Shown here piece after piece: positions 10,368 through 54,599 of a DNA stretch of 64,000 nt. Each line of letters opens with the position of its first letter. The first letter of the stretch is position 1. The position numbers and the translations under genes were made by a program. Source of the DNA: Seison nebaliae (Eukaryota); the NCBI GenBank assembly GCA_023231475.1, contig JALJEE010000715.1, forward strand, positions 1-64,000. Reading direction: 5' to 3'. The notes under the pieces were generated by a model. That model saw nothing but the letters and a program-made list of their open reading frames with translations, made no database searches and was not told where the DNA came from.

Positions 10368-11621
10368 ATGGATAAGGAAGGTAATCGAATTGTGGTTTGT
10401 GATAATGGAACTGGATATGTGAAATGTGGAGAGGCTGGTTGTAATTTCCCTCAACACATCTTCCCGTCCCTAGTTGGACGTCCGATGCTGAGATATGCTC
10501 GACGAGTGGGAAATGCAGAAATTAAAGATTTGATGGTGGGAGAAGAAGCGGCGTCTGTTCGTCAAATGTTGGAGATATCATATCCGATGGAAAAAGGAAT
10601 AGTGAAGAATTGGGAGGACATGAAACATATTTGGGATTATACATTTAGTGAAAAAAAAATGAATATCGATTTTGATCGATCGAAAATTTTGTTAACTGAA
10701 GCACCATTAAATCCGGTACAAAACCGTCGAAAATTATTGGAAGTGATGATGGAAGAATATGGATTCAATGCTTGTACTGTCGCTATCCAAGCTGTTATGA
10801 CATTATATTCCCAAGGTGTCACCAGTGGTGTGGTAATTGATTCCGGTGATGGTGTGACACATATCTGTCCAGTGTATGAAGGTTTCGCTCTCGAACATTT
10901 GACGAAACGTTTAGATATCGCTGGAAGGAATATCACTCAATATCTGATCAAACTCTTATTTTCCAGAGGTTATGCATTCAACAGTTCAGCTGACGCAGAA
11001 ACTGTGAAGAAGATTAAAGAAGATACTTGTTATGTAGCGTACGATATTGCGAAAGAAACAAAACTCGCACTAGAAACGACGACACTTGTCAAAAAGTTTT
11101 TTTTGAAAATTAAAAAAAAAATTATTTTATTTTCTAAATTTCAAAATTGTCATAGATATAATTTACCGGATGGAAGACATATTAGAATAGCGGCTGAGAG
11201 ATTCCAAGCACCAGAATGTTTATTCCAACCGAATTTAATCGATGTTGAATCGAAAGGAATGGCGGAACTTTTATTTGATACAATTCAATCGGCCGATATC
11301 GATGTACGATCGAGTCTATATAATAAAATTTATTTGAGTGGCGGTTCTACTATGTATCCGGGACTGCCGTCAAGATTGGAGAGAGAACTCAAACAATTAT
11401 ATTTGACGAAAGTATTGAATAATGACGAGAGTCGATTGAAGAACTTCAAATTGAGAGTGGAAGATCCACCTAATCGGAAACATATGGTGTTTTGGGGTGG
11501 GGCCGTGTTCGCTAATTTAATAAAAGATATCGATTCATTTTGGATAAATAAACAAGATTATTTTGAGTTAGGTGTCGATAAATGTTTAGAGAAGTTGCAA
11601 CAACGTCGAATTTTAGGTTAA
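10368..11621 (+). CDS. ACTR2: Actin-related protein 2 (2 exons; intron 11096-11155; 397 aa spliced)
   Basis: [42 protein letters not shown]. The ORF-track insert [20 protein letters not shown] is a 60-nt in-frame GTT...TAG intron whose removal gives [18 protein letters not shown]. Confidence 0.97.
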
Positions 11622-25449: not shown

Positions 25450-26210
25450 ATGAGTTATCTTCAAACAACTAACGAAGATGAAAAATTAGCAGAAGCGAAT
25501 AATTTGATAGATAACCCTCCTCCCTATTGCGCAATAGGCGAACCTGATTATCGTCGCAGTACTCCTAATCTTACACCTCAGTATCCTATCACTGCTGGTC
25601 CGACACTTTATCAATCGAATCCATCTATCGTTTATCCTGCAGCAACATTTCCGTTATATCAACAAACAATCCCCACAACGATTTATGTGAATCAAAATGT
25701 TGGCACGAATTCGATTGTCGGAATGAAATCACCACATTGTATTCCTACATTAGAAACGGTGACAAAAAGACATGAAATCGTGTTTGGAGGAATCAATACC
25801 GGTAATGAATTTTCAATAAGTTTACAACAAGGAAATTCTTTAAGTCCTCAAAATACCCCGCTTAATATTAGTGTAAATTTAAACACACGTAAATTTTCAA
25901 TGAACACTTGTGTGAACGGTCAGTGGGGGAGGTCTCTTGTTCAAAAAAGATGTTTCATTTTACAGCCGAATTCAAAACGTTTTCTTATTAAAATTGTTTG
26001 TCGTCGACATATGTTTAAAGTTTTCATTTTGACTCCACAACATTTATTCCAATTCTTTTTTAGATCATGTTTAATGGGAAACATATCATGAACTATTATT
26101 ATCGTCAACCATTGGCATATATTAATCATTTAATGGTTAAAGGAGATTGTGTGACTGATGTTCTAAATGTTCGATATACATATCATTATTATGGTTGTCA
26201 GATAGTTTAA
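25450..26210 (+). CDS. Galectin-like protein A (Pro/Tyr-rich N-terminus, degenerate CRD, C-terminal CQIV; intron 26020-26063; 238 aa)
   Basis: FSISLQ...MNTCVNGQWG...FLIKIVC, and spliced exon 2 IMFNGKHIMNYYYRQPLAYINHLMVKGD...YYGCQIV*. Paralog of the next gene with an intron at the same position. Confidence 0.8.
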
Positions 26211-27857
26211 TCGAATAATATCAATATGAATCGGACGAATAGCAATGATCTTATTTTGCGATTATCATCCCAATATCATTCTAAAAGGAAAATGACATTT
26301 GCCCAATCATTCCACATTGTCAAACAATTTTAAGAAAATTTTCATACAACTAAATAATATGCACTCACTATCATAGTCCAAATAATATTTATTTGAATTG
26401 AAGTTTTGTTATTTTAATTTATGTTAACCTTTCTTACATACGATTTACATTTACCATATGAAATGAAAAATATTATAAACAAAAGAACATTCATCATTAT
26501 GAAAAATTAAAAATTTATTCCTAATAAAATTGTTCTTCCAAAAGTGTCATCATTAGGGAAATATTCTTTTAAACTTAAGCAATAACCCAAACTTGCAAAA
26601 CAGCACATATACATGTGATGTAATTGGAACTAGTTTAATATAAGTTTTAATTATCAATAATTTAGTAATCGACATAATGTTCTCGGATAACCATTCTTAA
26701 CAATTTCCCCTAATTTATGATCTCATGATATAATTGGTATATAATAAGAAACTGTGATAAATAATGCTGTTAATTAACAGAATTTAGACCTCATCGAATT
26801 TCCGAGATTGAGATCCTGTAGTTTAAATTTCCTATCATTTCGACACTTGATAATTAATTTATCTCCAATAATGAAACTGGACAATTTTTTTCTCACTTGA
26901 TTGAAGAATTGATAACTCATTTTGCTCGATAGATTTATTTATTAGTTGCAAGTTGCAAATCAAATTTCCCTCGAATTCAGCTTAATGACTTGGTGATCGA
27001 ACGAGAGTTGTAAACCGAGTTATTATTTGAAATATCCCTACTTCATCTGATGACTAAAGCAAGAGGAATATTTCATCAAAAAGAAACCACCCCTGAGCTG
27101 CCATTCAATGATTAATCAAATGAACTTAATAACTGTAAGCATTCGATAATACTCAATACATTAATCGACCAGGACTCCCTCGATCAACGGATAAAATCTC
27201 ATTGATATCGATTACGACAAAAAAATTGTCAGTTGTTTCTTATTTAATCTGATGGGAATTTTTAATAAATAAATGATAATATTACTTTCAATAATGATTA
27301 AGTTATAGAAATATGATGTTATACAGTCTATAACACCTCTTCAGTTCGGCTGTTTTTTCTTCAATCATTTTTTCACCTATGTTTTATTCTAGGGAGTGCC
27401 ATGCATTACTTTGAACATTGATATGATATATCTATCAACTTAACTAATTTTCCTGAATATTGTTCTTTCGTTCGTTCCGAACATGCTGATATTCCAGTAT
27501 TGGAAATGTTCATGGATATAATGGAAGAGTGAAACACGAATCGTAAATATTCCAGGAATATATAGTAATATTAAAATTAGAATAATTTGTGAAATAATAA
27601 GTGAAGCGACTCTTATCATTAAACAAATGGAAATAATTTTAATGAATCATTTTATACATCGAAATATGTTAAGTCTCAACATTCAGTTGGCGAATGTAAT
27701 TTACCAAAGTAAACAAATAACAATTTTAAAAGATTGCTTCATATTACGTCGTTATAAAAGAAAAATATTTCAATAAGGAATAAAGAATATTGAATTATAA
27801 AAAATTGTAAATTTATTTTAGTTTATTGAATTATTGTATAAAGATAAATATTATACT

Positions 27858-28591
27858 ATGAATCCAAATTACCCTAATTCGATGTATCCCAACGTTCCCG
27901 GTGGTTATCCACAACAAGGTGGTTATCCTCAACAAGGTGGTTATCCTCAACAAGGCGGTTATCCTCAACAAGGCGGTTATCCTCAACAAGGCGGCTATCC
28001 ACCTCAATCGGGAGGTGCTACTTATGCACCAAATATGGCACAACAACAAGCCGCTGCTCCCCCATATCCTTCACCGATGGGTACTGCGGGAATGATCACA
28101 GGAATAGGAACACCTTATTGTACACCGATTGCTGGTGGAATGATACCTGGACGAATTGTTATATTTCGTGGTGTTGTAACAAATGATTCATTTTCCGTTA
28201 ATCTACAAGGAGGATATTGTTTGGAACCGAACAATGTTTATCTTCATATAAATCCACGAATTAGCGAACGAGAAGTCGTTTTGAATTCTGCAATTCAAGG
28301 TAACTGGGCCAACGAAGAAAGAAGTAATCGACGATTAAGATTGACTGCTGGTGAGCCATTTGAGTTGAGAATATTATGTAAAAAATATTACTTTAAAGTT
28401 CCTTTATTATTCTTTCTTCAATTCTTATCTTAACTCCATTCTTTTAGATTGGATTGAATGATCATCATATCGCTAACTTCCGTCATCGAGCTTCTTATCA
28501 AGCCATCGATCATGTGTTGGTAAGAGGAGATTGTACAATCGAATATCTTCAAGTACATTATACGGAAGAAGAATCATGTTCAATACAATAA
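27858..28591 (+). CDS. Chimera-type galectin B (GGYPQQ repeats, intact CRD, C-terminal CSIQ; intron 28398-28447; 227 aa)
   Basis: HINPR...VVLNS...NWANEER keeps the canonical galactoside-binding residues. Exon 2 reads IGLNDHHIANFRHRASYQAIDHVLVRGD...EESCSIQ*. First ATG is at 27858 (the track start is TTG). Confidence 0.92.
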
Positions 28592-30210: not shown

Positions 30211-30573
30211 ATGAAAACTACAATTATAATTCTCTTGCTTACATTCACATTGGCTTACGGAAAATCGGCATTTAAAAATTTTTCGCCATTGAGATTCTTT
30301 AGTAAAAATGGAGGAAATGGACAATCTGGTGATATGCCAATGATGGGAGGTATGGGCGGTATGAGTGGCCAAGGAGGAATGGGCGGTATGAGTGGTCCAG
30401 GAAGTATGAGAGGTATGGGAGGTATGAGTGGTCCAGGAGGAATGGGAGGTATGAGTGGTCCAGGAGGTATGAATGGTATGGAAGGTATGAGTGGTCCAGG
30501 GGGAATGGGTGGTCAAGGAGAAATGGGAGATATGGGTGATATGGAAGGTTTGTTGGGAGGTCCCGAATTCTGA
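30211..30573 (+). CDS. Secreted Gly/Met-rich repeat protein (120 aa)
   Basis: Signal peptide MKTTIIILLLTFTLAYG, then 9-aa GGMGGMSGP repeats with synonymous codon variation. Confidence 0.8.
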   Translation: MKTTIIILLLTFTLAYGKSAFKNFSPLRFFSKNGGNGQSGDMPMMGGMGGMSGQGGMGGMSGPGSMRGMGGMSGPGGMGGMSGPGGMNGMEGMSGPGGMGGQGEMGDMGDMEGLLGGPEF

Positions 30574-30635
30574 ATGGGAATGTTCCCTGAATGGGCCCAG
30601 GTGCAAAGGAGTAAATTAAACTAGAGATATAAATA

Positions 30636-30726: not shown

Positions 30727-31044
30727 TGATTTGATGTGTAGTTATTAATTTTATCAAAATAATCATGAAATTTTTAATTCAATAAAGTTCTACATCTTAT
30801 TTATCTAATTCCAATATTAGTTCCAAATATTATGATACGTATTAAAAAAAAACAGAAGCTTCATTGGTTTAAAATTATCATCACTTCTACGTAAACGTCG
30901 AGATCAACAATGAATCTCAAATGCTGGGAGAATAAAACTGTTTTTCATCGACCATCTTTAACTATAAGTAAGGTACTGCTTTTAAATTTTAACTGCTATT
31001 AATGTTGAATTTTATTTTACCATGTGCAATCAATGTTAAAATTA

Positions 31045-31340
31045 GTGCTGTTCACACGAACACGAACAAAAATTGACGGTTCTCGAATAGAATTGTGACA
31101 TCTCGTTTTTGAAAAACAGTTTGACACGAACAAGATACATTGTTATTGGTAATGGAGACTATTGGTAATTCGTGAGTGGGAAGTTCATCAAGAAAGGGCG
31201 AATAGACACAATTTTGGTCAATGTTTGTCATTAATTACAATGTAAGAGTTGCTTTGAAAGGGTTATAAGAAGACTCAATAAAAAGAAGCTTATTGAGAAA
31301 TATCTCATTCGTCTTGCCCCACATGACGGTAACCAATGTA
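31045..31340 (+). mobile_element. Possible PIF/Harbinger relic
   Basis: TTA followed by GTGCTGTTCACAC (Harbinger-like terminus). Downstream peptide WEVHQERANRHNFGQCLSLI resembles Harbinger transposase N-termini. No partner TIR found. Confidence 0.25.
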
Positions 31341-31750: not shown

Positions 31751-32502
31751 ATGAAAATTCTGATAATTTTTTCTGTTTTCATTGGCACAATAATTGCTAA
31801 AGTTTTATAATTTATCTCCTTATTGAACTGAAAAATACAAATTATCAAAAAGGATTTGTTATCTCTAAGCATTAAGGAGGTGGAAAAGATTTTTGATCAC
31901 ATCAAATTTGAAGATTTACCTTATGCCGTTCAACAAGAAATTACTAATATAAAATCCATCAATTCTTTAAGTCGTGGAGATACTTCGTTATTATCATACT
32001 AACAACTACTCTTCTTAATCTTCCTTAGAAATTACTGTTGTGGTCAACTAGTCCATCTCAATGACAGTCACAAAATTGTCATTGAACATTTATATCATAT
32101 GGAACACTTGACCGTATTGAGATATATGAATGTGAAAATTGGTCATGAATCTTGTGGATTTTTAGGTATGACAAGTTGTACTCGTTACTCAATAAGAACT
32201 CAGTTAAATTATTAATTTTTAATTTCTTCTAATGATTTTTGTTGAAGTGTCGAATCGCAAACTGTATCGAAACATAAACCATTTTCAAGTTTTGCTGATT
32301 GTGACAAGAAAATATGTTGTGAAGGTTATATCAATCTGTTTCACACTTGCATGAGTTAGTAAACAAAGAAATTTAATTATTTTAATTTATTTTTAAAAAA
32401 TTTATATTATTTTCAGCTTATGCAGAACTTTTGTCCAATCCAGCGTTAGTGAAATATGCTCAGGAACATATAAACGATTTTAGTGGAATAAAATCCATTT
32501 AA
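31751..32502 (+). CDS. Secreted Cys-rich EMI-domain-like protein (5 exons, 183 aa; not in ORF track)
   Basis: Exons 31751-31801, 31853-31986, 32029-32202, 32248-32354 and 32417-32502 join in frame: signal peptide MKILIIFSVFIGTIIA, NYCCG...SCGFLGMTSCTRY...ICCEGYINLFHTC. Confidence 0.8.
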
Positions 32503-32524
32503 ATTTTTTATTAGAATAAAAACT

Positions 32525-33775
32525 CTATTTTTTTAAACGTCTTCGTTTTCGTTTAGGTAAGGGTGGAATTAATCGACCATCAATCGGTAACGGATCACCA
32601 CCATTCATTTTGAGTATATCTGTTAAAATATTGATATATTGTATTGCCAATTTCAATGTAGCTATCTTGCTCAATTTGGGCAAAGTTGCATTGTTAGTTT
32701 GTTCGACTATCAGTGAATTATCGTGTTTACATTTCAGTTTGACTATTTGAGAATATTTTATAACATTCTCACTCAAACTGATATCGTCATTGTCTGTATC
32801 AGAAGAAAGTTCATCACTTTTCCCTTCGCTACAATTAGAAACGATTTCTGCGCATTTCACCGTTTTGTCGCAATTAACATCGTTACTTTTCGTTATTGTT
32901 ATAATTATGATCGGTCGTTCTAAATATTGATAATTCCTCAATTTTTGACAAGGCGTCTCACATTTATTAATCGATCCAATTACTTGTTCATACAAACGTC
33001 TCCAGAAACGTTTTTCATAAATTTTTTGTTTTTTCAAAATTTTCTCTTCCTCTTTCTTCAATTTCTCTAATAAATTACTCATATTATTTTTCGTGGGGAA
33101 ATGGAGTGGTATTTGTTCATTTTGACATTTGGGCACTTTATTTCTGGATTGTGTGACGATTGTATGTGTATCATTATAGACAGAACTGAGATATTGATTA
33201 ATCGATTCTGCTGATGGTTCATCAGCTTTCCGTTTTTGAACTGTTTCGTTGATTGTTGTGAAAGGAATTGGTAAGGAAAAGTTACTCGTGGGTGCGACGA
33301 TTGGAGTGAAGATATTATTTCCATCTTGACAATTCATCAAAGGCATTGAGGATAATTGGGGGAAATAATACGGTGAAACATAAGAAAGTCTTTCCAAATT
33401 ATTGAATTGTGTATCGATGGAATGTTGTAATTGGAACAACTCTTCATTTAATCGATTATTCTGCCAATTATTGTAAACGTTCAATTCGTCATTTGTTGCC
33501 GATTTGGGTTTCGGTCCATAATAGAAATTTGTATTAACAGCACCGCCACAATTGTAGTTATAAGCTGAGCGTAATGGACGTGGAACGATTAACCTTAACT
33601 TATCGAATGCTTCGTTCAAAGCTTTCATTCGGGTAGTACAACGACTATTTAATGATTCTGGAGTCATTTCAATAGAATCGTCGTTCATCGAAGGCATTTG
33701 AAGAACATTCATAAAAGAAAAATTATTTTTCGAACAATTGAAAGTCGATGGATAATGTAGATTATAAAACATCAT
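32525..33775 (-). CDS. Class A (atonal/twist superfamily-like) bHLH protein with split domain
   Basis: Helix 1 RMKALNEAFDKLRLIVP (aa 49-65), helix 2 KLSKIATLKLAIQYINILTDIL (aa 367-388), C-terminal NLS-like PKRKRRRLKK. Confidence 0.8.
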   Translation of the reverse strand: MMFYNLHYPSTFNCSKNNFSFMNVLQMPSMNDDSIEMTPESLNSRCTTRMKALNEAFDKLRLIVPRPLRSAYNYNCGGAVNTNFYYGPKPKSATNDELNVYNNWQNNRLNEELFQLQHSIDTQFNNLERLSYVSPYYFPQLSSMPLMNCQDGNNIFTPIVAPTSNFSLPIPFTTINETVQKRKADEPSAESINQYLSSVYNDTHTIVTQSRNKVPKCQNEQIPLHFPTKNNMSNLLEKLKKEEEKILKKQKIYEKRFWRRLYEQVIGSINKCETPCQKLRNYQYLERPIIIITITKSNDVNCDKTVKCAEIVSNCSEGKSDELSSDTDNDDISLSENVIKYSQIVKLKCKHDNSLIVEQTNNATLPKLSKIATLKLAIQYINILTDILKMNGGDPLPIDGRLIPPLPKRKRRRLKK

Positions 33776-34422
33776 TTCTACTTCATTAGAGAGATCTGGT
33801 GATGAACATGGAAACTAATTGATAAAGTAAACATTTTCTTTAAAGTTTCTGGGGAAATCTCTACCCGAATTAAGGCAGTTCACTCCAGATACATTTCACT
33901 CTTCACTTCTCCTCATAGTCAACGGTTATCCCGCTAATCGCATAGAGCACAATTATCCAATAATTACATTCCACCTAAATCAATTTCCTTTCTTACTTCC
34001 TCCTCTCATTGAGCATTTTTTAATCAAATTAATTTTTGATTAAAATTGATCTTGTCCATTACGATGGTTATGAAGATACGACCATTTCCATTTATTTCTA
34101 ATCAATTATTAGTTAATTAAGTTTAATAATCATTTTTTTGGTTAATAAAATTTTATAAATGAAAATGTTTATTATTCACAGTATAGGTTTAACAAAGTTT
34201 TATCAAGCACAACACAATGCTCCTCATTTCTTCATAGAAATAAAAAACAATTTTGAATGGCAAAGTCAATATATAGTTTTAATCTAAAAATTGTAATGGA
34301 TCTTTTATGGATAAAGATTGTTGGCATATATTTGTAATCCAATCAGATTATTTAAAGTTATAAGTAAAGTGGAATACTGGACAAAAAGTAGTAATTAATT
34401 TAATTATTTATTATAAAATTCT

Positions 34423-34469
34423 TTCTTTATCCCGACGGGAATTTTAAATAAATAATAATAATAATAAAA
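34423..34469 (+). repeat. Short dispersed copy of the 3012-3038 tail followed by (TAA)n
   Basis: TTCTTTATCCCGACGGGAATTTTAAAT is identical over 27 nt. Confidence 0.7.
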
Positions 34470-34782
34470 TCAAATTTGCTCGGGGTAAATTAAAAAGAAA
34501 ATAAGATAGATAATAATATAATAGGAGTTGATGAATATATAATATGCAATGAGGAAAAAGGAGAACAATAAAATATTAAAATAAAATAATATAGTTCTTC
34601 TTAAAATCTTCTTAAAAAATTAATTAAAAATTATGTTTTCCCGAAGTGCTTAAGCTCAATATATCTCTACTATTAATTGATTCATCGAGTTTTTGAGAGA
34701 TGATGGTAAAAGTGAAGAGGAGAAGAATGAATCTGAAGCTTTTGACGTCAAACTTCATTTCTGCTTGTTGTATTAGAAAATA

Positions 34783-35141
34783 ATGAGTTTCCGGCATGTT
34801 GGACGACGTCTTCTGTCGACGGCAACAGAAGCAACCGTCAAACCGAAGAGAAATATGTTGGCAAAATATTTCGATTTACCAGATAAACCGTTAGTATGAA
34901 TTCTGATGGATTGCTCTCAAATTTATTCAATTGAAGTGTTAAATATCGAGATATGCGAATGAAGAAAGTACCGGCCGACAAATTTTTAGGTCGTGCCGGA
35001 ATGACGATAATGTGGGCGTGGATCTTTTATCATTGTATGGAATATCCAGAAATGATTCTCGGTCATAAATCACCTCCAGATCCGACATTGTGGACTAACG
35101 AAGAATTAGGAATTCCGCAATTACCTGAACATATCAAATAA
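34783..35141 (+). CDS. NDUFB2: NADH:ubiquinone oxidoreductase subunit B2 (AGGG); intron 34890-34936
   Basis: Mitochondrial presequence MSFRHVGRRLLSTA, MWAWIFYHCMEYPEMILGH..PDPTLWTNEELGIP. A CRE-like TGACGTCA lies at 34743-34750. Confidence 0.9.
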
Positions 35142-35289
35142 TTTAGACACAATTTTAGATTTGGATTGAGAATGTTCAAAATTTCTAATTCGAACAGACG
35201 AATTTTAATAAATTTATTATTTGGGTTGAAATTTCTATGAATATTCTCATCAGAATTTTTAATGTTTTCCAAAAAACGAAAATTTAAGG

Positions 35290-35380
35290 AATTTAAAATT
35301 TTAGGAGAAATTTTAGAAATTTAAAATTTTGTGAGAAAATTTTTGAAATTTAAAATTTTGGGAGAAAATTTTTGAAATTT
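35290..35380. repeat. AT-rich minisatellite (~29-nt unit, ~3 copies)
   Basis: AATTTAAAATTTTRKGAGAAAWTTTTWGA-like units. Confidence 0.6.
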
Positions 35381-35395
35381 GAATTTTTCCATTTT

Positions 35396-35899
35396 TCATT
35401 TCAGTAAATATGGAGGTGGTGTTCGTTGATGATTGAGAATGTAGGACATTTCAAACGGTTCTCTTACATTCGGTTTTCCAGCACGATGTTTGTCATCAGT
35501 CAAGATGAATTTTCTACTGGAATTCTCGTTGGATGTGATCGGTTGAAGTTTTAAAGAACTTAACAGATCTCCATTGAATATTTTGGGTAGTTGTTTATTA
35601 GTAAATTTGTTAACATAAACTTCATTGAAAGGATCATAATAAACGGGATTCTTTTTATCACTAAAATTTATGGAGTTGTAGGGATGACATGATTGGAAGT
35701 CAGGTAGATTGATTTGTTTTCGATCGATGTTATTTTCTCGATTTTTGATTTTTGGTAGTGATTGTTTGTGAAGTGGAAGTTCGTAGAGTTTCTGATATTT
35801 CCAATCAATATAATGAGGACAAGTGAAGTGATGTGCATGTAAGGCATAAGGATTATTAGCAGAGAATCGACATCTTCCTTTACATTTCAAATTTGGCAT
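35396..35899 (-). CDS. Uncharacterised 167-aa protein, probably ciliary
   Basis: Open 167 codons in AT-rich DNA, Pro/His/Tyr-rich, X-box ~80 nt upstream. No family recognised. Confidence 0.6.
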   Translation of the reverse strand: MPNLKCKGRCRFSANNPYALHAHHFTCPHYIDWKYQKLYELPLHKQSLPKIKNRENNIDRKQINLPDFQSCHPYNSINFSDKKNPVYYDPFNEVYVNKFTNKQLPKIFNGDLLSSLKLQPITSNENSSRKFILTDDKHRAGKPNVREPFEMSYILNHQRTPPPYLLK

Positions 35900-35978
35900 A
35901 ATTTCTTATTATTTCTTATCAGACAAATAAATTAATGATAAGGAGAGTATAATATTTAAAATAATATTCATTTATGTA

Positions 35979-35992
35979 ATTGTTATGGTAAC
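35979..35992 (-). promoter_or_regulatory. RFX X-box-like motif
   Basis: GTTACCATAACAAT on the minus strand, with a perfect GTTACC half-site. Confidence 0.5.
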
Positions 35993-36220
35993 AGAGAAGT
36001 TTTTCTTGACAAACTTTAGTGAAAGAAATTTGTAGATGAGAGAAAGTCGAGTCAGAATGAGAAGAGAATTCTTTGAGAATTCGTGTCTCTATGTCGGGAG
36101 CATTATATCAACAATTTATTAGAAAAGTAATAATAAGTTAGCATTTTTAAATGTTTTCTTTTCTTGAGAAAAAAAGAGAAGAAAAAGAGAGTAGAGAAAG
36201 AAAAATAAAGAAATATCATT

Positions 36221-38253
36221 TCAATTATGTTTCTTTGAGGAAGTCGATGTGGCTGATGTTGAACTTCGCTCACCACCATGCAAATGACTTCTACTGTTCG
36301 ATGTGTCGATGGTTGACGAACTATAAACATTTGTGAACGTACTATTGTTAGTGATGGGAACGGTATCGATGATACGATAACGAGAATTAGAACGAAATGG
36401 AACAATTCCAGTCGCTTGTCTAGTGGTGGCAGGGAGGAGATTAGATGATATTCGAGCGATATTATTATTACTTAACGTCTGTTTTTCGTGTTGTGAACAA
36501 CTTAAATTTTGTCCACTATTATATCTCATTTGATTTTGGATTTTCATTGATGACGATGATGATGCTTTGACGGAAGATGTCGAATAACGATGTCTCATAA
36601 AAACATTTTGATTGGGAACTTTCTCGTTATGTTTCAGAACTTTTATCTGATGTCGACGACATGTCGAATCGTCCTTATTTTTCATTGTAATTGATACACC
36701 GGTGGAGGATTGTCGTCGATTAGTGAAAGGAATCGTCGTTTGTGGCAATTGATCTCGAAGAGATTTATTATTCTCTTCAGTTTTATTTCGATGATTTTTA
36801 TAATTATTTTCATCCTTCGATTGAAGTTCATTCTTTTCCGATTCAAAACTCGCTTTCACCGCAGCTAAATGTGGACCAATTGATCGTTTAACGTGTCGTT
36901 GCTCTTGTTTCTTTATCGGTTCCGTTTTATTCTTTTCGTGAGGAAGGAAAGTTTTTGATTTTCCAGTGTCGATCGGATTATATGTGACAGGAATGTTACA
37001 ATCAGCCAAATTTCTACGCGGCGTTATTAACGGAGATTCGCGTGAATCAGAAATCGATTTTAAAATTTTGAAACTTTTAGTTAATAAATTCCATGAACCA
37101 CCATCAGTTTTCGAAGCGGATGATTCGGACATTCGAGAAATTCTCAATCTTCTTTTAATTTTGGGAGAATTCAACAATTGTCTCCGTTTATTATTTTTCG
37201 TTGTCAATCGTTCGTCGTCAGTAACTGATGTTAATTTGGGTTGAACAATTTTTTGTCGATTTGGAGTGATGTTAGCTAGAATTGAGAAGTTATCCGATCT
37301 GAATGATGTGGTTGGTGTAACTTTGGCAATCGAACTTTTATTCGTCGAACATGTTTTCTGTTTATTGTTGTTATTCATGAAATTTATCGATCGTTTCACA
37401 TTAGAACGTTTTTGTTGTTGATGATTTGAATCTTTCGTTTTTGATGGTAATGTTATGGTACTTTTATATAAATCGGAATTTTCATTTTCACGAATATTTG
37501 TCGACGATTGTCCGATGATTTTCAACGAGATCTTCTTCTCGTCTTTGTTCAATGTCAATTTGGATTGACTTCGATTATCTTTTGAGAAAGTTTGTGAGGA
37601 TTTATTGAAAGGAAAAGCAATCGCTGATTTGGAAGTCAAACGAATGAAACGATCTTTCATCGATATTCGTTGAGAACTGTCCGATGTCTTCTTCTTCAAT
37701 TGTTCATCATTCGGTGATGATAATGATGATTGAGATGTGCTGGTATTGCAACAATCCTTCAACGATTTCCCACTTTTCCAATTCTTATTATTATAATTCT
37801 CCATTTGTAAATAAGAATTCGAATAATCTGATATATCACCACCAGTATTGATACTGTTCTTTTTCGAGATAGTTATCGAACCGGTTGATGGTGGCATGAC
37901 CGTTCCTGGAATTTCTGGGGCAGATTTCCCTAATTGTCTCAATCTCATTGTTTGTTGTTTCGCATTCGTCCACATAACGGGCGATAAAAGACTTGGTAAG
38001 AATTTGTCGTTTGTCTCATCTTTAAAATGGATATTGTCTGTCAAAAAATGTTTTCTGTCATGTATTCTATATCGATTATATCGATTATTCGCTACAATTG
38101 ATTGTGCTCTCATTCCTGTGTCGCTATTGGGATGTGTTGGTCGATCATTAATTGTTAATTTAGATCGTGGCATCGATTTATCCACGTCTGATAATGTATT
38201 CATCAAATTCTTATCGATCTGTTTCATAACTGAACTCATTCGATTATTATTAA

Positions 38254-38290
<37 letters not shown>

Positions 38291-41274
38291 ATATCTTTGT
38301 GTTAATTCGATGAATTTCGCATCTAAAGTCTTTTGATCATAAGCATTCGATTTGATGATATTATGACAAGTTTTTCGAGAGAAATTGGTTGTGTTCAATA
38401 AAGTTGATGCGCCACCAGCCGCATTAGCTAATGATGATGATGATAATAAATCATTTTGAACGACACGACTTCGTCGAGTAAATCCACGATTCTCCGATTG
38501 ATATCGATTAATCGGACGACGATTATTTGCCTCTTCCGACGATTTGACTTCGATTGGCGATTGTGATTGAAAATCGATAAATTTTATTTGAGTCGAATTA
38601 TCTGATGATGAAGCTGTTGTCGTTCCAGTGGTTTGGAGATATCGATCACGACAACCGTCACTAACGTATCTGAATCCGCTATCAGAATTGACATCTTTAT
38701 TCGAACATAACGACTGATGTTTCTTTATGGTCGTTAGAGCTTGTGGTGATGAAGCTGAAGATGATAATTTTGTTATTTTCATTTTCGAATTTGGATGAAG
38801 TTCATTTTTCAATTGATTTTCCCAATATTTATGACGAGATTTTTTCAATTTTTTCCTCTGATAATTCTTCCATTTCATATCTAACGATTCGTCACTTTCA
38901 TCTGAGAAGATATTCAAATTCTTTATCGTCTGATTTTCCGAAGTTTCTGTAATTGAGGGCCATTTTTCATTTGTACCTGGATTTTGTTGAGTCAATTCAT
39001 GAACAATCGTCTTCAAATCAGTGGCAAACGCAGAATTTCCATCCAAATAATACGTCGCTTCGATATCATTATTCTTCTTTCTTCGTTTCCTCACAATTTT
39101 CTGTTGTTTTCTGATTTCTTCCACTTGTTTCTTCCCATACAAACCGTCATCACCCAATTCACAATCAATATCACCTTCATCTCCACTCGAATAATCTAAC
39201 AAAGATATTTCACCATTCTCATCTTTCACTCCCAATTTTCCTGAAGCGATATCAAACGAATAATGTTCTGGAAGGAATCCGAACATTTTACAAATCTTTT
39301 CGTCATTATTCGTCACTGGTCTCGACGCGTGTTTTTGTGGTCCAAACAATTTCGCTTTATGATGTCGATGATGATGTAATTGATTAAGTGTATTACTCGA
39401 TGAGTTCGCCGAATTTCCAGATATCAAACTGGGTTTCTGTACATTTCCCATTTTGTTAGTTCGTGAGAAGATCGAAGCAAATTCTTTACTATTCGTTGAC
39501 GAAGTAGCAGAATCGAAATAATTTTTTGAATTCCTCATTTGTTCCTCACAATTCTTCAAGTCACTAAACGGATATTTTGTTCGAATTAATTTCGAACATC
39601 GCAAATCTGTTACAATCTGATCGAACAAATTCTTTATATCTTTCTCACCTAATAATTTTTCATCTTTCTCAGTGTTTGATGGTGAGGGATCAGGTTTCAT
39701 GTTTGCTTTATATTCCATATACCTGATACCACCAAATGATGTATTAAAATCGGCAACACAAAAATCCGTATCACTTGAAGTTGATGATTCGTCGTTATTA
39801 ATACTGTCGATGGTATTGATACTGTGCTTGGAAATATTTTTCATTTTTTTCAAACTATTCTCTAATTTTGATGAAGATGATTCTCTCGGTTTCGTTCCCT
39901 CCGATATCAACTTCATATAATTCATTCGATGACGATAATAATTATCTTGATGTTGTTTATTGTTGAGAATGATGGTACGATTGATTTTCGGATGTAAAGG
40001 AGAAGATAACGTTTTCAAATAATTATGATTCATACCATAAAGGAAGGAAGATATCTGGTTTGAATATTTATTCAATAATTCAACACCTTCATTGGAATCG
40101 ACAGTTCTACAAATGAAGCATAATTTTTTAATTTCAAAAAAAAATTAGAAATTTTTAACCTTACACGATACAGATTCGTACCGACTAATGTAATCAGATT
40201 AAGAGCGATATCTTTAATTTTATTGTCATTTTTACTCACTCTCGTTTTATCACTTCGTTCGTCACTAATAATATTCTGAGAAGAAGAATTTGGTGTGGTC
40301 GTTTTAGAGGAAATGGAGGAAGTGAATAATTTCTTATTTTTACTACAATTCTTATTCTTCTTTAAACTATTCTTCGGAAAATCAGATAATGATGTACTTG
40401 ATGGTAACGAATGGGTATTTTGCGATTTCATCGAAAGATAACTGTTCTTACGTTTGTTGACGGGACTTTCGGATTCGAACACTTCATTGTCCTCCACCGA
40501 ATCCGAAATGTCGTCGTCAGCAGAACTCGATATGTCTTTCGACATACCATTCGCATTATTTTTCCGATTTCCATCGGTAAAATGTTTTTTTAGAACTTTA
40601 TGTATCTTCTCCTCGAATATCTTTACAACGGATGCGAGAATTTTGGAGGCTACAGTGAAACTGCTGTGATCGCAGACACTGAACACGATGGCTAAGGCGT
40701 CACTACGACTGAGAATATCTTTCAATGATTGTCTAGTTGAGCAGAGCTGAAATCGGAATAAGAATGAATGATTGTGAGAAAAATATTTTAAAAAAATTTA
40801 TTGAGAATAATAACTCTATCGAAATCTGTATCTTCTATTTTGAGGATACATGGTTGATTGTTAACGAATGTGGTACCGAGGCATCTTGACGGTGGTATGG
40901 TTCGTATCAATGCATCATCTATAAAACGAAATATTTTTTTTTTAAAAAAAAATAATTTTAAGAATTAAAATATGTGAAATTAAACCGTTGTGAGGAATGT
41001 ATTCATCGAAATAGCGATTTGTTAAATATCGCATAATCACGGCTAAAAAGGAAGGATAAAGAATGAGAATTTGATGGTTTGAAAGAAGAGGAAGAAGAGA
41101 TTATAATGAACCCGATTTACCCGATGAAGTTGCACCAACGAACGTAACCGAATATGATTCTTTAGTTACATAGGGAAAAGTCTCGTTAATTTCGAGTGTG
41201 GTCGGTTTGAATTTTTCGAAATCATTTGCTCGAACCGATTTATTTGTGGGTTTTCGACTGATGGATGTTGTCAT
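36221..41274 (-). CDS. Very large Ras-like (RERG/RASL-type) degenerate GTPase, ~1598 aa, 5 exons
   Basis: Introns 41043-41111, 40919-40985, 40747-40814 and 40107-40159 join VTFVGATSSGKSAVIMRYLTNRYFDEY...LKIEDTDF...SDALAIVFSVCDHSSF...LVGTNLYRVRTVDSNEGVELL to the 1284-aa track ORF. Start ATG 41274 is tentative. Confidence 0.75.
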
Positions 41275-45209: not shown

Positions 45210-48024
45210 TTAGATTAACACGATCCGACTCTCCTCACCACAATCATGACAAGATAAATTTAAGTGGCACGTCGTGTGCATCCACTCATTCTTCAATTTC
45301 ATTCGACTTCCATTCCCATTCCGTTCCTTCATCACGAAAATTTTATTCCTCGTCACTAGACCGATAACATATTTCGCAAAAAATGAAGTGTCGCCATCGT
45401 CCGTTTTTTTCAACCATCTGATCTTACTCGATATTATCGATTGTTTCACCGTTTCATTCTGAGTCACATCTAAATCCGAATAGATTAATTTAAAAAATAA
45501 TTCAAGTTCATCATAAATAAATTTAAATGGAAAACCATGAATGATTTTCAATTTTTCAGTATCGATGTCAACTTCGATCATATCCGGTTTGTTATCAGAA
45601 GAGAATAATAAATGTGGATGTCGGACACCTTCAGTCTCTAAGAATGCCAAGGAATTCACTTGGAGATTCGTATCGATATGGAAGAGCGGCTCAAATATGT
45701 TAAGAGAAACATTCGTCCAATTCTCATCGATGGAATTGATGAGATATTTCGTTTCATTTTTCATGTTATAATTCAACGAGTCCGACGGTTTCGTTTGTTT
45801 CTCTTCATAATATATCTGTTTTTGTAGGAGTGTTAATTTATCATGCCACCGATTCATCTCAGCTTTGGTGAGAACGTGTAAAGGATTTATACTCTCCACT
45901 CGAATCACATTCTTCTCATTATTAATCGTAATGAGGAGATCTTGATAATCGTCGATGAATACAGATCCATAATTAATCCGTCTTTTCTTCTTGGAGAAGA
46001 GTTTCGGTTCGGGAACACTTCCGGTCCATCTAATCGACATCGCCTCGTCAATCACATCTAAATAAATCGGTTGAGTTGTTAGACAATCGGCAACATATCG
46101 AATCACCGAATTCTTCCCATCCTCCACACAACTCACCAAAACAAAACCTGGAAATACAAAATTTTTCAATCGAACATTTTTATGAAAAATCAAACATGCA
46201 TCATATCGATTCTTCCATCCGTTCTCGGATGATGGTGTGATAATATGGAAATCATTCATTTGACAAATTTTATTTGATGAATATAAATCTTTCGATAAAC
46301 ATTCCTTATTCTCGGTCGGACAATAAATTATTGACTTATTTCCACTTTTTCCATTCGTCACCAGCAACCACAAAGGGAATGATGGGAAATTAGGAATCAT
46401 TTCAATTTTCTCGATATAATCATCTTTTCCCAATTCGTCGATGACAGATACTAATGAATCATGATTATCGCCATCTTCATACGTGAAATAATCGTCGTCG
46501 AAATTCGAGTCCAACATAAATGACAATTTCAATCGGATCAATTTATTTTTTTCATCATCACCAAATTGAAGGAATAAATCATCAGATAATTCATTGTATG
46601 GGAAAATATTTTTAATGTGTTGTTGAAAAATGATTTTCTAAAAATTTAAAAGAACTTAATTTAAAAAAAAATTTCAATTCGTTAACTTTTATTCGTTTTA
46701 TCGGTTTCTCTGAATGACGACGATGAGAATTGATAAATTGAATTCGTTCGATGATTATGAGAATTAATACACTTGAATTCTTCTCGAATGCGACAATGAC
46801 AGTTTTCCAATCATCATTCTGAACAGGAACATGACATAATATCGTCTTCTCCCAATTACATCGATGATTTGAATCGAAACATAATTTGGATGAAGAACTT
46901 TTCGTTATCGATCGATCGGTTTGTTTCTCGTTCGATAATTCGATGATAGAATCTTGTGCTGATATCGTTTGTACATTCATCACATTCATTTTTGGTTGAC
47001 AGGTTTTTAGGGAATATAATTCTATTCCGTTCTCACTGAAGACTGATAGATAATGTTCTTCATCAATTTTTTCATGTAGTTCTCGATTTTCAAAAGTTGG
47101 ATCCACAAATCTCTTCGTTGCTTCCAACCAATATGAGAATTGATGTTCAACATTCTTATTCTTCCCATTCGTCAGAGATAAGTGAATTGTACAAGTGAAA
47201 ATGCCTAATAATTGAGGCAAATATTTCTTCTTCAACTTTAATTCATTCAATCGTAATGTTGAAGGATGAAGGAATTCGTGGAAATAATTCGATTCCATCT
47301 TATCATCATATCTCGACCAACTGATATTGATAATATGATTTTTCACCAACTGATAATTCGTATCATTTCCTAAACAGAACAATGAAATATTTTCAGATGA
47401 TTCAAACGAATCTAAAAGAAAAATCTCATTTTTAATTTTATTCATATTTCCAATATCAGACAATAATTCCATCAATTCATGATCGTCTATCGAATTTTCC
47501 GATTCTTTATTTTTTGTTTGCGGTTTATTCGAAATCAAATTGAAACATAATTGTTGGAGAAGATATTCGTCGTACTCTTTTTCGGATGAGGAAGAAATGA
47601 AATCAAACTTCGATTCCATAATTCTGACAATTGGCAAATTGATTTGTTCATATGTTCTTCCGTCACCATTCAACCGATATTGGGCTTCCTGACAATCGGT
47701 CAATATTAAATCGTTTGGATTTCTATAGAGATTTCCATCACTTCCACACATAATCGTTCCGTTAGCTGATATGTTGTTAGATTTGGTCAGATCGCATATA
47801 CATTGAGATTCATAGAGACTAATTGCAGGAATACTGTCATCATTATCAGATTTGATGGTGTAAAACGGTTGACATCGATGGAGTGGATGTGGACAATCGT
47901 TGTCGTTGGCACAATCTAATCGTTGTTTCTGTTTTTGTAATAGATCATTCCTTCGAATAGTTTCACTAAATATTTTTGAAATAAACAGGATTTTGATGAG
48001 GAGAATATGATTTCGTAAAATCAT
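45210..48024 (-). CDS. Secreted Kazal/follistatin + Ig-like protein, divergent FSTL4/5-like (~921 aa; intron 46638-46686)
   Basis: Signal-like N-terminus, CIC...IMCGSDGNLY...DC (Kazal), LFC...ISWS...GIFTC (Ig) and a beta-rich C-terminal half. A 49-nt GTT...TAG intron fuses the two track ORFs in frame. Confidence 0.6.
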
Positions 48025-53778: not shown

Positions 53779-54599
53779 ATGAACAAAATGAATAACTTCC
53801 ACCCTAAAACTACATCAACACCGAAACGTTCCAACAATAAACAAGAGAAAAGAAAGCAAATAAATGATATTCTTGTTCGAATGGAGTCATCTGCCTGTTT
53901 TTGTAACCAAGGAACACAAATGAATCAAGATCGTTTTGATAAGCATCTTTTCTGCAAAAAAATCGCTCACAACTTATACGAGGAACATTTAGTGGAAGAT
54001 ATTGAGTTGAGAAAACGTCGTTTATCCGAATGGCAATCGAGAAACATTTCAAAAAAACTCTCCAATAGTCGAATGTTCGGAATCGATAGTAAACAACAAC
54101 ATTACCGATGGTTACGCGATTTCTTCCGATATTGTCAATTAACTTTCGAACGAATCGATGAAGAATTCGTTCAATATATTTCCGATAACAACATCTGTTT
54201 ACAACACGTCATTTATCACAACGAAAAATTAATTGAACAATTATTAGATTTCCAGACGATGTTACAAAGTTAATTCTTTTTATTCTCCTTTTATTCTATA
54301 TATATTTAAATTTTTCTCTTTCAGAATGGAATCAAAGTTATTTTACCGATTACGCCGATACTCAATATGATACGGTCGATGTTTTGGAAATGTCGACGTT
54401 AAATATTTCAGCTGTTTCAATCCGATTACGAGTTTTATTGTTAGTCCATTCTTTCCTCCTTCTAAACTAATTAATTTTATTCAAATTATTTCTTTTTTTT
54501 ATTTCTAGTAAATCGAATACACAAATATTAAATGCGATGGGTGTTCTGGGATACTTCGACGGATTTCTGACGGAATTGATTGATTTTGGAGAAAAATAA
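53779..54599 (+). CDS. Uncharacterised helical protein (3 exons, 231 aa)
   Basis: Introns 54269-54324 and 54440-54508 (GTT...AG) extend the ORF to ...NAMGVLGYFDGFLTELIDFGEK*. TATA-like TATATAAAG near 53684. Confidence 0.65.

Follow-up and report, generated by a model that had tools for sequence, protein, structure and literature searches.

Few splice signals of animals are as conserved as the purine at intron position +3. In the canonical animal U2-type intron, the 5′ splice site (donor) CAG|GUAAGU pairs with the U1 small nuclear RNA (snRNA) 5′ end AUAC-psi-psi-ACCUG, as described in PMC9311317, and the account in PMC11347140 puts 44% of C. elegans donors in the GURAG class. The printed precedent for GTT donors is Entamoeba, with GUUUGU(U) donors and a co-evolved U1 of 5′ end ACAAAC (Roy and Bowser, bioRxiv 10.1101/2022.06.08.495308). 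For the seisonid rotifer Seison, PMC8351084 describes a compact genome of ~46 Mb and two diverged lineages. Here we analyse the donors of the protein-coding genes in a 64-kb stretch of Seison nebaliae DNA (contig JALJEE010000715.1, positions 1–64,000; the window), which is AT-rich (GC 28–37%). Every short intron modelled in it begins with GTT. Since A would otherwise come to occupy +3 by drift in such an AT-rich genome, this sequence pattern makes it very probable that U at +3 is obligatory for the major spliceosome of Seison.

The intron set comprised 25 introns modelled by hand and two in-frame introns, those of Arp2 and at 45535, flagged by a de novo composition scan blind to +3 that was too noisy for listing missed genes. 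As a guard against bias, all frame-keeping GT–AG pairs were enumerated for each intron. All 27 introns (41–69 nt) started with GTT and none with GT followed by a purine (GTR), the base expected at +3 from a GURAG-type consensus. Given the intron T content of 0.509, the chance of 27/27 GTT is P = 1.2 × 10⁻⁸, and the upper 95% bound on non-T at +3 is 10.5%. For 15 of the introns, enumeration found no non-GTT in-frame GT–AG pair at 30–110 nt, and for 23 it found no in-frame non-GTT donor to the same AG at 38–69 nt. Homologues fixed the junctions of Rab2 introns 1 and 2, the Arp2 intron, both galectin introns and introns 2, 3, 6 and 8 of a radial spoke head (RSPH) gene. Three NCBI proteins, SNEBB_000162, SNEBB_000157 and SNEBB_000164, mapped exactly to the window with 1, 8 and 8 junctions, respectively, and all 17 were GTT; 15 of these are among the 27 introns, while the two extra ones are an intron at 46195 and a 3854-nt intron that likewise begins GTT. 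The all-GTT donor set is thus beyond chance, whereas the mere presence of decoy donors beside it is not. All 27 modelled introns have the features of U2-type introns, with GT and AG ends, a place in protein-coding genes, and conserved frames restored by their removal. A U12 type was rejected: the U12-type donor consensus is RTATCCTT, and no donor had A at +3.

Outside GTT the donor was weak, with G at −1 in 8/27, A at +4 in 12/27 (A12 T9 C5 G1), G at +5 in 7/27, and T or G at +6 in 11/27 and 2/27. Introns were 51% T, 31% A and 4.5% G, and against this background of G the +5G was enriched (P = 1.5 × 10⁻⁴). Because +5G is enriched and the arrangement GTTNNGT fits only 1/27 donors, the donor register is normal, and a shifted register was rejected. 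Acceptors were T-rich HAG, with AAG endings in 7/27. No clear branch point motif was seen: only 8/27 introns have YTRAY at a distance of 9–34 nt from their acceptor. Intron interiors were strand-biased (G 4.5% vs C 13%). A number of introns continue the reading frame of the exon before them, and three, Rab2 intron 1 (55807–55745, minus strand), the Arp2 intron (11096–11155, plus strand) and 45535–45470 (minus strand), have lengths of 3n without a stop, so that open reading frame (ORF) finders read through them.

A sequence-only reading of the window had proposed that canonical donors next to GTT donors are ignored at 40164, 34894 and 32166, and each of these decoys does lie there and does produce the stop or frameshift described. 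In a Ras-like gene on the minus strand, intron 4 (AAG|GTTAAA...GTAG, 53 nt, 40159–40107) opens a long exon and gives the maximal ORF, as in the NCBI model. The decoy CGT|GTAAGG (40164–40159), 5 nt upstream, joined to the same AG at 40107, shifts the frame to ...YRNCRFQ and a stop. The long exon has 1294 codons, not the 1284 counted earlier. In NDUFB2 (plus strand), whose exon 2 matches Pfam NADH_B2, the intron ACC|GTTAGT...GAAG (47 nt, 34890–34936) gives a 103-residue product 100% identical to NCBI SNEBB_000162; the decoy TTA|GTATGA (34894–34899) with the AG at 34936 makes a 43-nt intron and a stop after two codons (PLC-stop), and reaches frame only via a poorer AG at 34964 (95 residues). The third example is a plus-strand gene at 31751, labelled EMI-like because its CCEGY motif and cysteine pattern resemble EMI; the label is unconfirmed, single exons having no Pfam match at E ≤ 1 and no Atlas match ≥ 0.9. 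Here TCA|GTTAAA...GAAG (intron 3, 45 nt, 32203–32247) is the only donor keeping the downstream frame, and with it CCEGY, while TAG|GTATGA (32166–32171), 37 nt upstream, shifts the frame, loses CCEGY and makes an intron of 82 nt, which exceeds the length of all 27. At 34890 and 40159 the GTT donors are also those chosen in the NCBI models, and reading frame and annotation together suggest that the decoys are ignored. None of six DNA-like sequencing runs compared with the window showed spliced forms.

How much these examples can say by themselves depends on how well the decoys compete. Canonical U1 matches were scored over nine positions, with the U1 5′ end taken from PMC9311317. The decoy and the real donor scored 6 vs 3 in the EMI-like gene, 6 vs 5 in the Ras-like gene and 4 vs 5 in NDUFB2, where the decoy also pairs worse with canonical U1 (−2.8 vs −3.7 kcal/mol). 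The NDUFB2 decoy is simply the GT at +5/+6 of its own donor, and PMC2423196 reports such a +4 pseudo-donor in roughly half (47% + 5%) of the constitutive donors of humans. Each example therefore has an ordinary explanation, and only Ras-like intron 4, the best of the three, is a fair contest, because its decoy has the better canonical match and would make a 58-nt intron, inside the normal range. Jointly, however, the three defeat each simple rule blind to +3, whether nearest GT or canonical strength. The further claim that +3 U is preferred rather than just tolerated is well supported by the census, while the three examples prove little alone.

Two more competing sites were found in the Ras-like gene. 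TCT|GTATCG (40171–40166, minus strand), missed earlier, also joins in frame with a 65-nt intron and a product four residues shorter; the NCBI model skips it. Retention of intron 4 gives an open 332-residue product. A cleaner pair occurs at intron 1 (CGG|GTTCAT...TTAG, 69 nt, 41111–41043, minus strand), supported by the in-frame model and the NCBI model. Nine nucleotides upstream lies CGG|GTAAAT (41120–41115), with an identical exon triplet and a canonical match of 7 vs 5 of 9 for the real donor. This decoy is in frame, but it would delete the GKS of a P-loop-like motif, and its 78-nt intron is beyond 41–69 nt. Introns 2 (40985–40919) and 3 (40814–40747), both GTT, are the sole in-frame GT–AG pairs at their positions and are annotated. 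Depletion of canonical donors was also sought in ~15 kb of coding sequence, a background that still contained two short introns: GGTAAG occurred 0 times vs 0.66 expected, GTAAG 3 vs 3.96, GTGAG 10 vs 8.89 and GTTAG 8 vs 6.37, counts too small to give the comparison power.

Several rules for picking the donor were compared over the 27 introns. The nearest GTT leaving at least 38–41 nt before the acceptor was the modelled donor in 27/27. The nearest GT of any kind picked 23/27, failing at NDUFB2 and three other introns; the best canonical U1 match picked 15–23.5, failing at Ras-like intron 4 and others; the best match to a U1 beginning ACUAAC picked 20–25; and random choice among GTs at a plausible acceptor distance picked 12–18. 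Inside the introns, the GTs leaving at least 41 nt were 0 GTT and 4 non-GTT (three of the four being the +5/+6 GT), and those too near the acceptor were 11 GTT and 4 non-GTT, a contrast by distance with a post hoc Fisher P = 0.018. Competing GTT seems to be purged where GTA is tolerated, although the evidence is modest.

A comparison was also possible with a second lineage. One sample contains a low-depth (3–5) lineage that is 80–84% alike to the window over RSPH. Among 40 of 209 listed entries, RSPH intron 2 of this lineage had changes at −1, +4, +5 and +7 and none at +1 to +3, and at RSPH intron 4 the local alignment ended exactly at +3. At this depth and among these entries, the pattern is only suggestive that donor positions +1 to +3 are kept while flanking positions change.

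As the cause of the +3 rule we lean, by a little, towards a predicted change of U1 snRNA nucleotide 6 from U to A, turning 5′-ACUUAC into ACUAAC. With A at nucleotide 6, only U would pair at +3. One base change would thus flip the purine rule, in which A or G faces a U1 pseudouridine, to U only, and would leave the neighbouring positions degenerate, as observed. The residual GTTAG points to ACUAAC and not ACAAAC. With so little information in the donor, the choice of site would be made over the whole intron and would fall on the GTT closest to the acceptor that still leaves at least ~40 nt. GTA and GTG sites would be poor or inert substrates and could persist unpurged beside real donors, and upstream decoys would lose twice, by +3 and by distance. 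We hold as evenly balanced the broader proposition that the working U1 is ACUAAC, with GUU obligatory genome-wide, GURAG donors inert, and donor and U1 having co-evolved inside Metazoa. The ACUAAC state may have arisen when a variant U1 paralogue took the place of the canonical U1.

U1 genes of this kind exist in other metagenome contigs. A metagenome scan for ACUAAC-type U1 gave 74 loci; 13 of these were put to Rfam, and five hold U1 (85–141 bits). Full-length U1 genes with AUACUAACCUG are present in contigs L003, L004, L051, L065 and L024. Four score 138–141 bits, at L003:1080–1240 (−), L051:343–503 (+), L004:2888–3048 (+) and L065:347–507 (−). Since L004 equals L065, L003, L051 and L004 make at least three distinct loci, on one animal-like kind of contig with flanks 80–95% alike. 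The fifth lies in a tandem unit (L024:1155–2553) holding U2, a shorter ACUAAC U1 variant (85 bits) and, adjacent, a canonical U1 (121 bits). Over their full length, L004 and L024 showed no coding exons in which donors could be tested. The ACUAAC U1 variant thus looks like a natural, intact RNA gene, which shows only that it exists in nature. The multi-copy AUACUAACCUG variant would pair with GUUAGU.

Several results weigh against an ACUAAC U1 in Seison and against a general +3 rule. A search of the window with Rfam gave no snRNA, so the ACUAAC U1 of Seison is a prediction; none of the five ACUAAC U1 contigs matches the window, and these loci are not Seison; and the L024 variant adjoins a canonical U1. 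Matches to an ACUAAC U1 are low, with a mean of 5.0 of 9 (25 donors), and as seen above such pairing (20–25/27) predicts sites worse than position does (27/27), while the ~40-nt minimum in the positional rule is derived from the same introns it is tested on. Exonic GTT decoys upstream of the donor are not depleted: for 25 donors, the zone that fits the length range has 6 against 5.7 expected, and a wider zone has 16 vs 13.6; non-GTT decoys in the former zone were 12 vs 9.5. Exonic decoys are skipped whether they have a purine or T at +3. The census covers one 64-kb window in which nearly all introns are short, and the NCBI annotation may share the frame logic of the hand models.

A doubtful but possible alternative keeps the +3 U requirement and places its cause elsewhere, with U1 canonical or minor. 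The change would lie either close to the ACAGAGA box of U6 or in 5′-site proteins (U1C, LUC7, PRP8, SNRNP27K), and would make U, and not a purine, the base that fits at +3 in activation or catalysis. Position +3 contacts U6 in spliceosome structures. In the window +3 is as fixed as +1 and +2 while −1, +4 and +6 are near background, like a constraint at the catalytic stage, and the energy of the U1 duplex predicts sites with middling success. The account in bioRxiv 2022.06.08.495308 adds a highly diverged Entamoeba U1C and, as a further point against a changed U1, lists Giardia, Trichomonas, Saccharomycotina, Thecamonas and Mamiellales as having changed donors with U1 unchanged. However, the uncompensated lineages in that account mainly have +4 changes, and the sole +3-to-U lineage it examined has a compensated U1. 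A single U1 base change would also be a simpler route than a change in U6 or in a protein.

That there is no +3 rule at all is highly improbable. A permissive spliceosome would then recognise short introns by how long and how T-rich they are and by a strong acceptor, with GTT following from composition and the decoys losing by position. The introns are indeed rich in T and poor in G, the nearest GT of any kind alone picks 23/27, upstream GTT decoys are skipped as well, and +4 pseudo-donors are reported to be skipped in humans too (PMC2423196). Yet composition alone gives the P value quoted above for 27/27, A makes up 31% of intron bases and occupies +3 in no donor, +5G is still selected, and the short AT-rich introns of C. 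elegans have 44% GURAG in the account of PMC11347140 vs 0/27 here. It is also very unlikely that the pattern is an artefact of sampling or modelling that hides a sizeable GTR class elsewhere, for example in long introns. The data come from a single window, the first 25 junctions were hand-picked, 10/27 are backed not by annotation but by reasoning from frame or motif or by one homology check, and the noisy de novo scan leaves room for missed genes. Against this, blind enumeration left most introns without a non-GTT choice, the Arp2 intron was found blind and then confirmed by homology, ten separate gene models agree on GTT, and even the annotated 3854-nt intron begins with it.

The junctions outside the genes discussed so far differ in their support. 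The RSPH gene (SNEBB_000157, 24236–22686, minus strand) has eight introns of 41–57 nt, 8/8 GTT, placed by exact NCBI mapping and homologue alignment. Blind enumeration against a 91-homologue profile put non-GTT options at least 18 bits lower at introns 2, 3, 6 and 8, while at introns 4 and 5 homology leaves non-GTT alternatives (695–702 and 708 vs 705 bits). The Rab2 introns 55807–55745, 55500–55452 and 55270–55218 (minus strand) are all GTT, the first two bracketed by PDB Rab-2 alignments. The Arp2 intron (AAA|GTTTTT...ATAG, 60 nt, 11096–11155, plus strand), found blind to +3 after the rule was formed, is in frame and appears as a 20-residue insertion relative to PDB Arp2. Two tandem galectin genes (25450–28590, plus strand) have an intron at the same position: in galectin 1 (GTT, 44 nt, 26020–26063) Pfam PF00337 runs from position 96 to 97 across the junction, and in galectin 2 (GTT, 50 nt, 28398–28447) PF00337 is continuous across the only in-frame pair. 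The second gene carries an N-terminal GGYPQQ repeat, as chimera-type galectins do. A large gene on the minus strand (46686–45470) has GTT introns 46686–46638, 46195–46148 (annotation only) and 45535–45470 (present in the NCBI model). In a further gene (54269–54508, plus strand) the introns 54269–54324 and 54440–54508, both GTT, have no non-GTT in-frame pair. The other EMI-like introns (31802–31852, 31987–32028 and 32355–32416, within 31802–32416, plus strand) are all GTT and are frame-based models only.

Single exons of the Ras-like gene gave no match to a family in Pfam, PDB or Atlas, and its 1294-codon tail has no Pfam match; a word-based homologue search gave no match for its exon, while a full HMMER search finds the NCBI model. 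Modelled alone, the gene encodes 1598 residues, and a low-complexity insert interrupts its diverged G-domain. SNEBB_000164 (2509 residues, 48024–36224, minus strand) joins it to the gene at 48024 via the 3854-nt intron, and is likely to be an annotation fusion of two genes that reads past the stop of the first. Elsewhere in the window, 31040–31145 and 34440–34511 are high-copy short repeats (depth in hundreds) at which many alignments have loose ends, possibly small non-autonomous elements. Short tandem AAGAGCCA-type repeats at 2020–2150 and 2640–2710, in opposite orientation and ~500 nt apart, flank a small ORF and may form a terminal-inverted-repeat element. A small secreted-looking ORF with Gly/Met-rich repeats lies at 30212–30575 (plus strand), and the reads show a close paralogue or allele of it.

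If the +3 U rule is true, an animal lineage has changed its donor code at a large number of introns and did not first have to lose most of them, which bears on the question of selective loss versus co-evolution raised by the Entamoeba preprint. Should the Seison U1 be canonical, the rule would point instead to a natural change in U6 or a protein that sets +3 specificity. In practice, gene predictors trained on other animals would misplace Seison donors, and so would heterologous expression of Seison genomic clones. Searches of the open-licence literature gave no report of GTT donors for Seison or any animal, although pan-eukaryote surveys in subscription journals could tabulate the species.

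Shifted-register 5′ splice sites, reportedly described by Roca and Krainer in 2009, also start with GTT; they need GTTNNGT, which Seison fits in 1/27. Tandem GYNNGY donors, or +4 pseudo-donors, as described in PMC2423196, match the NDUFB2 decoy exactly, their GT at +5/+6 going unused in most constitutive exons, and explain that one example, not the census. With canonical animal donors Seison shares GT–AG ends, normal register, +5G enrichment, T-rich acceptors and short introns; it is unlike them in having a purine at +3 in 0/27 and G at −1 in only 8/27. The likeness to Entamoeba, as the preprint describes it, lies in an AT-rich compact genome, in a +3 position that is U in practically every intron, and in a compensated U1 5′ end, which in Seison is predicted. 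Entamoeba, however, is an amoeba that has few introns and a strict 6–7-nt donor (88–90% GUUUGU in the same account), whereas the genes of Seison, an animal, have multiple introns, and its donor, fixed only at +1 to +3 with weak +4A and +5G (GTTAG), departs from the strict GUUUGU(U) of Entamoeba.

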